64,000 nt of DNA, from the IMG/VR virus record IMGVR_UViG_3300028887_000070, positions 96,001 through 160,000 of that record, one strand, 5' to 3'. Positions 39,313-41,544 of the stretch are shown here, piece after piece. The position numbers were made by a program, and so were the translations under genes. Under the pieces are notes generated by a model that did no database searches, was not told the origin of the DNA, and saw only the letters and a program-made list of their open reading frames with translations. The stretch is from a virus. Lineage: Duplodnaviria > Caudoviricetes. Each line of letters opens with the position of its first letter. The stretch's first letter is position 1.

Positions 39313-41544
39313 ATGAAAATGGAACAGAACCCGAAGTTTGATCAAGCATTTGCAGAGGTACATGCCACATTCAGGCAGGATCAGATAGATCTAATGCTTG
39401 GTCGTTCAGGACTCCAGCCATGTGAGTCTCTGAATTCATCATCACGAAAGATAATGCATTCCAACCAGAAGAAACAAGCTAAGTGTCCTAAGGAATCAGA
39501 AGTTCCTCTTGTTGGTACTGGAAGCGAGAATAGATATGGACACATGTCTTCTGCGTTTATAAGAGCAGAAGACTCACAAGAAGTAATAGCTAAGATAAGT
39601 AGGTACTCTATGTATCCAGATCACGAGTACTATCTTATTATCAGGAACGAACGTAACGAGCTCAATATGGTGACTCGTACTGTTTGTCAGCATAACACCG
39701 AAACATTCGGTTTCCTTTGGAACAATGACTATATCGACTCTCTTAATGAAGGAGATGTCATTCCTAAGGGAAAAGTATATAAGAAGAGCACCAGCTTTGA
39801 TGAGTATGACAACTATAAGGCTGGTGTCAATGCACTTGCTACATATGGAAGTCTTCCACAGACTACTGAAGATCCAGTAATCATCAGAGAAGGTTTCCGT
39901 AAGAAGCTTAGTTCTCCAGAGTTAAAGCCCATAACCGTTAAGTTGAATGATAACGATGTGCTTCTTAACTTGTATGGAGACGATACTGTCTATAAGGCTT
40001 TCCCTGATCTTGGAGAAGAGACAAAGAATGGTATACTCTGCTCTATAAGAAAGGCCAACTCAGACAACTCAGCATTCACCTTATCTAGAGACTCTCTTAG
40101 AAACATAACGATCTCTGATGAGACTATAGTTCCTAAGGAGGGTAAAGTCGTAGACATCAAGGTGTATTCTAACAAGCAGATAGCCCCAGGATGTGAAGAG
40201 GGAGAACTCTACAACGTCTTCGAGGGTCAGCTTAAAGCATATAATGATGAAGAGAACCGTTTCGCTAGACAGTTTGTCGAAGCGATGGCCAACTACATCA
40301 ACAACAAGGACTACAAGATATCGTATGAACTTGAAGAGATGTATTATACCTGTAAGGGTAGGCTTGAAGGTAAGCAGTTCATTGAAGATGGTAAGATCTC
40401 AAGTAACATGGTCATAGAGTTCCTTGTGTATTGTGATCATACTATATCTATAGGTGATAAGCTTGCTAATCGTAATGGTGGTAAGGGCGTTATCGCAGAC
40501 ATATGGCCTGATGAGAGAATGCCTAAACTTCCAGATGGTACTCCTGTCGACATCATATGGGACGAGAGTACTTGTGTAAACAGACTTAATATAGCTCAGC
40601 TCTCAGAGCTGTCTCTCAATCGTATCGGTAGAGGAATTCTTAACTTCATTGATTCAAACTGTCTTAATGCAGTCGAGATTTTCGATATTCTTGAGCATTA
40701 CTATAGAGAGCTTTCACCAGATCTCGCAGACTTCCTTAAGACTGCAATAGATAACTTTGCTTCTGATCAGGAAGCTATCTTGTTTATAGAGTCAATGCTT
40801 CACCCTAATGAAGGACCTAGAGGAATCTATACTTCTCTTCTTCCTATCAGTGAATGTGTAGACTTCGATAAGATTAGAAAGATCTATGAAGAGTTCCCAT
40901 ATATTAAACAGGAACATCTTCTTGTTTCTATCCCTAACTCAGATGGAACTTATCGTGACGTATGGTCTAGTAAACCATCTACAGTAGGTGAACAGTTCGT
41001 ATACATCCTCAAGCAGGAAGCTGAGGAGAAACACTCTGCTACTTCTGCATCTTCGACTAATATCAAGGATGAGAATAGTAAGAGTAAGGAATCTAAGGAG
41101 TATAGATGTGCTATCACTAAGACTCCAGTTAAGTGGGGCGAGATGGAGACAATGATCTTCCTCCACTGTAGTTCAGAGACAGTAGTAATCAACGCTATGC
41201 TGATGTCTCTGTCTCCTAGAGCACGAAGGAGTGTTATGGATATGCTTCTCGGAGATCCGTATCATGTAGACATTCATATTGATATGGATGCACGTAACAG
41301 ATCTGCAGAGAAGGTTCAGGCTATCATGAAGGCTATGGGACTTAGACTCAAGTTTAAGAAGATCCCAATAGTTCAAAAGCCTGTATTCGAAGTAATGCCG
41401 CAGAAGATGCTCTTTGAGGTTCTTCCACAGAAGATGCTCTTTGAACAGTTGCCGCAGAAGATGCTGTTCGAGCAGATGTCTCAGAAGATGTTATTTGAAC
41501 CGATGAAACAGGAGTTGCTCTTTAAGCCACTTTGGGTGGAGTAA
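39313..41544 (+). CDS. rpoB: Non-virion RNA polymerase beta subunit, C-terminal part
   Basis: SRKIMHSNQKKQA, GDKLANRNGGKGV, MP...G..VDII, RLNIAQ, YILKQ, KWGEME; early-type promoter at 39247. Confidence 0.88.
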   Translation: MKMEQNPKFDQAFAEVHATFRQDQIDLMLGRSGLQPCESLNSSSRKIMHSNQKKQAKCPKESEVPLVGTGSENRYGHMSSAFIRAEDSQEVIAKISRYSMYPDHEYYLIIRNERNELNMVTRTVCQHNTETFGFLWNNDYIDSLNEGDVIPKGKVYKKSTSFDEYDNYKAGVNALATYGSLPQTTEDPVIIREGFRKKLSSPELKPITVKLNDNDVLLNLYGDDTVYKAFPDLGEETKNGILCSIRKANSDNSAFTLSRDSLRNITISDETIVPKEGKVVDIKVYSNKQIAPGCEEGELYNVFEGQLKAYNDEENRFARQFVEAMANYINNKDYKISYELEEMYYTCKGRLEGKQFIEDGKISSNMVIEFLVYCDHTISIGDKLANRNGGKGVIADIWPDERMPKLPDGTPVDIIWDESTCVNRLNIAQLSELSLNRIGRGILNFIDSNCLNAVEIFDILEHYYRELSPDLADFLKTAIDNFASDQEAILFIESMLHPNEGPRGIYTSLLPISECVDFDKIRKIYEEFPYIKQEHLLVSIPNSDGTYRDVWSSKPSTVGEQFVYILKQEAEEKHSATSASSTNIKDENSKSKESKEYRCAITKTPVKWGEMETMIFLHCSSETVVINAMLMSLSPRARRSVMDMLLGDPYHVDIHIDMDARNRSAEKVQAIMKAMGLRLKFKKIPIVQKPVFEVMPQKMLFEVLPQKMLFEQLPQKMLFEQMSQKMLFEPMKQELLFKPLWVE
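41371..41532 (+). repeat. Six 27-bp tandem repeats encoding (P)QKMLFE(V/Q)(L/M) in the RNAP tail
   Basis: ccgcagaagatgctctttgaggttctt / ccacagaagatgctctttgaacagttg / ccgcagaagatgctgttcgagcagatg and three more units. Confidence 0.92.

Follow-up and report, generated by a model that had tools for sequence, protein, structure and literature searches.

What does a phage RNA polymerase (RNAP) do with a core subunit that ends in tandem copies of a short peptide, and which protein would such a tail bind? The locus raising this question lies in a 64,000-nucleotide stretch of DNA, referred to here as the window (bases 96001 to 160000 of a 231,846-bp phage record that is present in bovine gut metagenomes from several studies; RNA runs contained only small shares of the stretch). 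An open reading frame of 743 aa (39313 to 41544, + strand) encodes the C-terminal part of the beta subunit of an AR9-type non-virion RNAP (nvRNAP; PDB 7s00_C, E value of 2e-69; phrog_3295). It is a homolog of AR9 gp089 and phiKZ gp71-73, with full-length homology to AR9 gp089. Other nvRNAP subunits are encoded in the same genome, namely, beta-N, beta'-C, and beta'-N (identified with PHROGs) and a gp226 homolog (7s01_A; E value of 2e-29). Genes for a tubulin-like protein, a RecA-like protein, an NAD-dependent ligase, and the beta N-part are its neighbors. The tubulin/FtsZ-like gene (36502 to 37845) occurs here in a phage with no detectable chimallin and was found in 8 of 12 related genomes.

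The repeated tail and the bacterial clamp motif

The conserved part of the beta C-part stops at approximately residue 680, beyond which there is a 60-residue tail. The tail is predicted to be unstructured (AF2 pLDDT of 34 to 57), with secondary structure absent beyond residue 675. As a preliminary description of this DNA had reported, the protein ends in six 9-residue repeats (residues 688 to 741; 41374 to 41535, + strand). The 27-bp units are in frame at 41374, 41401, 41428, 41455, 41482, and 41509, exactly nine codons apart, and their cores are, in order, QKPVF, four copies of QKMLF, and QELLF. The array was recovered without insertions or deletions in contigs from three other studies, and the six units are retained in relatives at 85 to 95% identity.

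Pairwise comparisons of copies 2 to 5 revealed 24 identical, 12 synonymous, and 0 nonsynonymous codon pairs in the first six codons. The last three codons, which are free to change, yielded 2 identical, 2 synonymous, and 14 nonsynonymous pairs. Because the core of the units has changed only synonymously, the earlier claim of selection on the protein was corroborated. The composition-based chance of five QxxLF words in 60 residues is about 3e-9 genome-wide; the number of copies is explained by tandem duplication, and it is the synonymous pattern that demonstrates selection. The unit is better written x-x-[P/M/L]-[L/V]-F-x-x-hydrophobic, with residue 8 invariably M or L and with the Q outside the conserved part. 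Together, these results support a docking role for the tail, which is real, under selection, multivalent, and part of a core RNAP subunit.

A survey of 180 beta C-part homologs addressed the repeat number and conservation of the tail. Self-repeating tails were present in all 10 homologs with >55% identity, in 40 of 76 at 33 to 55%, and in 6 of 52 below 33%. Repeats are therefore frequent above 33% identity and rare below it, and each lineage repeats a word of its own (NPFKK, SPFVR, KVMCK, KIWNK, PAIEF, DPLY, and others). Copy number and spacing vary between relatives. What is kept across the clade is a short hydrophobic unit, often proline led, followed by a further hydrophobic residue two or three positions later. 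In a sister group of beta C-parts (P0030 to P0034 and P0101 to P0182), there is a different, conserved-looking extension of approximately 90 residues without repeats.

The preliminary description had likened the tail to the QL[S/D]LF motif that binds the bacterial beta clamp (DnaN), for which we used the consensus Q-aliphatic-x-LF. Both are short, hydrophobic, linear, and end in LF (positions 4 and 5 in five of the six window units), but the tail differs in having a nonaliphatic residue 2, an unconserved Q, an extra hydrophobic residue three past the F, and a lineage-specific turnover. An aliphatic residue 2 was found in none of the 53 units in close homologs, which have K or E instead. Q leads all six units in the window and 31 of those 53. 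Across the clade, LF is not retained, only 2 of 64 lineages have QxxLF and none has QL[SD]LF-like words, and the core position is W, Y, I, M, or C in other lineages. The further copies in this genome described below are mostly Q-less, including those of the ligase, DnaB, and beta'. Assignment to the bacterial motif was thus not upheld.

One word shared by most DNA-acting proteins of each phage

The unit, hereafter the tag, recurs elsewhere in this genome. One copy, PLFQVI (42148 to 42165, +), lies in an insert of the NAD-dependent DNA ligase (41812 to 44160) that is missing from the AR9 ligase. Two copies (9192 to 9236, +) are located near the C terminus of a DnaB-like helicase (7179 to 9299), and another (47882 to 47899, +) is near the N terminus of a 141-aa zinc-ribbon protein (47852 to 48277), the orthologs of which carry their own lineage word at the same place. 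A conserved 286-aa protein (phrog_12252; 24427 to 25287) has a tag-like word at its C terminus (24436 to 24453, − strand), and its orthologs likewise terminate in the lineage word. The word is also present at the C terminus of beta'-C and in small proteins; two other proteins of the genome have Q-led copies. The beta N-part (45789 to 47594, +) bears the lineage word near its C terminus in 8 of 12 genomes, with no clear copy in this one. Clear copies are also missing here from the sigma-like subunit, the SF2 helicase, and SbcD (G000:47533-49260, G000:215496-217022, and window positions 5836 to 6969), which are tagged in most relatives. The unusually regular six-copy array of beta-C possibly compensates for these three untagged proteins.

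Across approximately 150 related loci, the word in the ligase insert was that of the phage's own beta tail. Among 35 lineages with <55% identity, the mean similarity between a beta tail and its own ligase insert was 41.1, compared with 29.5 for crossed pairs, a value that none of 20,000 permutations reached. Matched pairs beat crossed pairs 16:1 when the comparison was restricted to disjoint nearest-relative pairs. The beta tail also matched the end of its own DNA polymerase (40.1, versus 30.7 crossed; 24 lineages; P < 5e-5).

We then considered 12 genomes (i.e., this genome and 11 further whole records) by using tag profiles seeded only from the beta tail, the ligase, and the beta' tail, all other families being held out. 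Observed matches exceeded the crossed expectation for the DNA polymerase N-part (11 versus 2.2), the sigma-like subunit (the AR9 gp226 homolog; 9 versus 1.6), beta-N (8 versus 1.6), DnaB (8 versus 1.6), the SF2 helicase (11 versus 3.1), and HNH endonucleases (8 versus 0.8). SbcD, two homing-endonuclease families, and several proteins of unknown role were also above the crossed expectation. RecA, topoisomerase, terminase, RNase H, SSB-like proteins, virion RNAP, and virion proteins did not rise above background in these genomes. Profile matches were located near termini in 35% of own and 15% of crossed cases. A genome-wide excess of the word was detected with 10 of the 12 profiles and was weak for this genome and G003.

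Clade-wide, the tag carriers are nvRNAP beta-C, beta-N, beta'-C, and the sigma-like subunit, both DNA polymerase halves, ligase, DnaB, SF2 helicase, SbcD, and homing endonucleases. We conclude that most DNA-acting proteins of this jumbo-phage clade carry the tag, in disordered termini or inserts, and that its sequence changes lineage by lineage in all of them together. Given that nonhomologous, unlinked proteins change one word in step, we infer a common partner that evolves with the phage. The same turnover disfavors a conserved host pocket, and with it the earlier suggestion of host DnaN as the partner. Separately, HNH and AP2-type homing endonucleases in G009 (L291 and L292), G006, and G020 carry the word of their host phage at a terminus, with six copies in G009; mobile genes therefore adopt the tag.

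A predicted clamp fold behind the DNA polymerase

This phage group has been described as lacking a classical sliding clamp (Iyer et al. 2021, PMC7824862). Approximately 30 core genes of the present clade have no AR9 counterpart and are mostly uncharacterized, and a candidate receptor was picked from this set. The gene (G000:8139-8825; L003:8139-8825, +) is outside the window, is unannotated, encodes 228 aa, and lies directly behind the DNA polymerase N-part. It occupies this position in all 12 genomes (open reading frames of 190 to 246 aa) and was found in 79 of 80 further polymerase loci, abutting or overlapping in 74. It was undetected behind the polymerase in L390 and anywhere in G026 and G041; the tail words of G026 are still repeated.

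The AF2 model of the protein had a pLDDT of 90.5. In a VIA structural search, ranks 1 to 38 of 48,161 chains were all clamps or clamp-derived factors matched over the whole length (Z scores of 4.6 to 7.2), including 9-1-1, T4 gp45, beta clamps, PCNA, the ASFV clamp, UL42, and UL44. The best match was 9-1-1 (Z, 7.2; root mean square deviation [RMSD], 5.5; 179 aligned residues), and T4 gp45 scored similarly (Z, 7.0; RMSD, 4.6; 167 aligned). Each of the 31 chains with a Z of ≥5 was a clamp, and unrelated folds came later, as partial matches only. The 228-aa protein is therefore predicted to have a DNA-clamp fold. With a Z of <8 and an RMSD of about 5 Å, this is a fold assignment, but it is consistent with both the uninterrupted series of clamps at the top of the ranking and the position of the gene. 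Of the methods applied, the wide structural search alone recovered the fold; the Pfam gp45 and beta-clamp models, a profile search of PDB sequences, and a feature search of the ESM Atlas missed it, and a Foldseek search of PDB gave no match at an E value of ≤0.001. Two other receptor candidates, core proteins of 236 and 254 aa, gave no informative match.

Within the core gene set, the clamp-fold protein is the least conserved (21% identity), although several lysines are invariant, and it is itself untagged (tag in 1 of 12 genomes). The gene position and the invariant lysines suggest that it may be a monomeric, DNA-binding factor stimulating the split polymerase. BFVD linked it weakly to the RNase H fusions of phiKZ-like phages, which points to a tie with the RNase H-clamp (Rhc) proteins discussed below. 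A clamp loader was not detected in five genomes (no PF13177 or full PF00004 match, in Pfam searches that also missed the clamp itself). Because no loader was detected, the protein is probably a nonring, UL42/Rhc-like factor on phage DNA rather than a trimer. At the syntenic position, AR9 encodes a hypothetical 238-aa protein (gp128; NC_031039.1 106726 to 107442; L356:3727-4443, −), which is a candidate processivity factor of AR9/PBS1; no significant similarity to the clamp-fold protein was detected (hhalign, 1.8%; profile search).

Against a link between tag and clamp, tag similarity and clamp similarity were uncorrelated across 24 lineages (partial Mantel test; partial r of −0.01), and the beta and ligase controls were flat too, indicating that the words are saturated at such depth. 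When tail residues 686 to 719 were modeled in complex with the clamp-fold protein (alignment A6), the prediction scored 0.00; the controls did not fold either, and the result counts neither for nor against binding. The evidence pointing from the tag to the clamp-fold protein consists of the fold, the gene position, and the client list.

Candidate partners of the tag and comparison with known systems

In T4 and RB69, the clamp gp45 is bound by clamp-binding motifs (SCBMs) on gp43, ligase, gp33, and gp55 (PMC7892883). By analogy, we consider it moderately probable that the repeats are a phage-private clamp-docking tag through whose copies on core subunits the RNAP is tethered multivalently. The tag peptide would dock on the clamp-fold protein encoded behind the polymerase, as gp45 clients do. 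The six copies on beta-C, together with single copies on other subunits, would form an avidity tether to clamp-bearing, replicating phage DNA, and core RNAP subunits would do what gp33 and gp55 do in T4. That the late RNAP is held by avidity on such DNA, and that late transcription is favored there, is a possibility to which we give slightly less than even credence. DnaB and the small proteins of unknown role would be unusual clamp clients, which counts against this reading. So do the weak genome-wide excess of the word in this genome and G003, the three proteins here without a clear copy, and two features of related phages described below, namely, the broad surface by which phiKZ Rhc binds its polymerase and the replication-independent late transcription of Goslar.

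The tag could instead be real and have another phage component as its receptor. This might be a component of a replication compartment, such as its scaffold or gate, for which the tag would be an address signal giving access to phage DNA, or the tags themselves, pairing as beta strands and condensing the enzymes. The great breadth of the client list, which extends to homing endonucleases and tiny proteins, the many copies per protein, the tubulin-like gene in the window and its counterparts in 8 of 12 genomes, and the core genes without an AR9 counterpart all fit such a reading, and the fast turnover of the word is password-like. Nevertheless, chimallin (phrog_4795) and PicA/Imp1 (phrog_3141) matched phiKZ only and none of the 12 clade genomes, very remote homologs being possible; RecA, topoisomerase, RNase H, SSB-like proteins, and the clamp-fold protein would need entry and yet are untagged; and the core clients (polymerase, ligase, SF2 helicase, and late transcription) mirror those of T4 gp45. 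On balance, a receptor of this kind appears rather unlikely.

Binding of the tail to host DnaN as a QxxLF peptide, like that of the phage Mu C protein, alone or beside a phage partner, is quite improbable. Late transcription of Mu does use DnaN (PMC12867686), five of the six units read QxxLF, and the Q-led units of close homologs and of two further proteins in this genome point the same way. However, no unit has the aliphatic second residue, QxxLF is confined to 2 of 64 lineages, other lineages having W, Y, I, M, or C in the core, and covariation with phage enzymes suggests that the pocket is encoded by the phage. As for the proposal of a multivalent tether to a host or phage clamp, multivalent docking was retained, with a clamp as the likeliest partner and a clamp-fold gene beside the DNA polymerase, and host DnaN was not. 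It is scarcely credible that the array is a neutral product of tandem duplication or serves the RNAP as an intramolecular structural or RNA-binding extension: a 27-bp tandem repeat at the DNA level and the variable number and spacing of units would fit this, but the core has 12 synonymous against 0 nonsynonymous differences, and the appearance of one word, changing in step, in nonhomologous, unlinked proteins largely refutes it.

Read as a clamp-docking tag, the system shares with that of T4 a phage-encoded clamp-fold hub (here predicted), a single short hydrophobic peptide borne on flexible termini of the polymerase, the ligase, and the proteins of late transcription, and an RNAP that would be tethered at more than one point. 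T4 tethers the host RNAP through the accessory proteins gp55 and gp33, whereas the tags here are carried by the sigma-like and core subunits of a phage-encoded multisubunit RNAP, on the core subunits in tandem arrays of up to six. Also unlike in T4, no loader was detected, the word is lineage specific, and DnaB and homing endonucleases are tagged.

A second comparison is with Rhc of phiKZ and Goslar, in which a clamp-derived domain is fused to RNase H and serves the polymerase (bioRxiv 10.64898/2026.09.30.755723 and 10.64898/2026.10.01.755736). Those phages have the same split family B polymerase and nvRNAP type, and both systems include a diverged clamp-fold domain that sequence searches miss and that is tied to replication and late transcription. 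In Goslar, nvRNAP subunits were recovered in pulldowns with the Rhc clamp domain, which some late genes require (10.64898/2026.10.01.755736). In the present clade, by contrast, the clamp domain is stand-alone (190 to 246 aa) behind the polymerase N-part, and RNase H is a separate gene (218 to 278 aa). A linear docking tag is present here and none has been described for Rhc; phiKZ Rhc binds the polymerase by a broad surface, not by a peptide (bioRxiv 2026 Rhc preprints). Because late transcription in Goslar proceeds independently of replication (10.64898/2026.10.01.755736), we regard "replication-coupled" as the weakest word of the preliminary description.

The AR9/PBS1 nvRNAP (PDB 7s00 and 7s01) has homologous beta-C, beta-N, beta'-C, and gp226-like subunits, and the gene sets are similar, but AR9 beta-C ends 20 residues past the conserved end, and AR9 ligase, beta'-C, SF2 helicase, and gp226 have no tagged extensions. 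The tag system therefore resembles the clamp-client working of T4 but is outside it, outside the DnaN motif class, and outside Rhc proper.

Our literature search found no clamp or docking tag reported for AR9-like phages. For chimalliviruses, the report of a clamp-derived factor came only with the October 2026 preprints, without a docking motif, and those preprints (10.64898/2026.09.30.755723 and 10.64898/2026.10.01.755736) mention neither AR9-like phages nor a linear motif. If the docking reading is true, this would be a first case in which a multisubunit RNAP has clamp-docking peptides as an integral part of its core subunits. The dozens of natural tag-receptor pairs would lend themselves to the study of how a binding code is changed jointly by a hub and about twenty clients, and orthogonal pairs could serve as tools. 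For the gut jumbo-phage clade as a whole, we propose, tentatively, that a stand-alone clamp-derived hub may run both replication and late transcription, with a docking code rewritten in each lineage. The RNAP would be tethered to the hub by tags on four of its five subunits, in tandem on beta; homing endonucleases would copy the tag to reach DNA; and the code may act as a self/nonself password between coinfecting phages.
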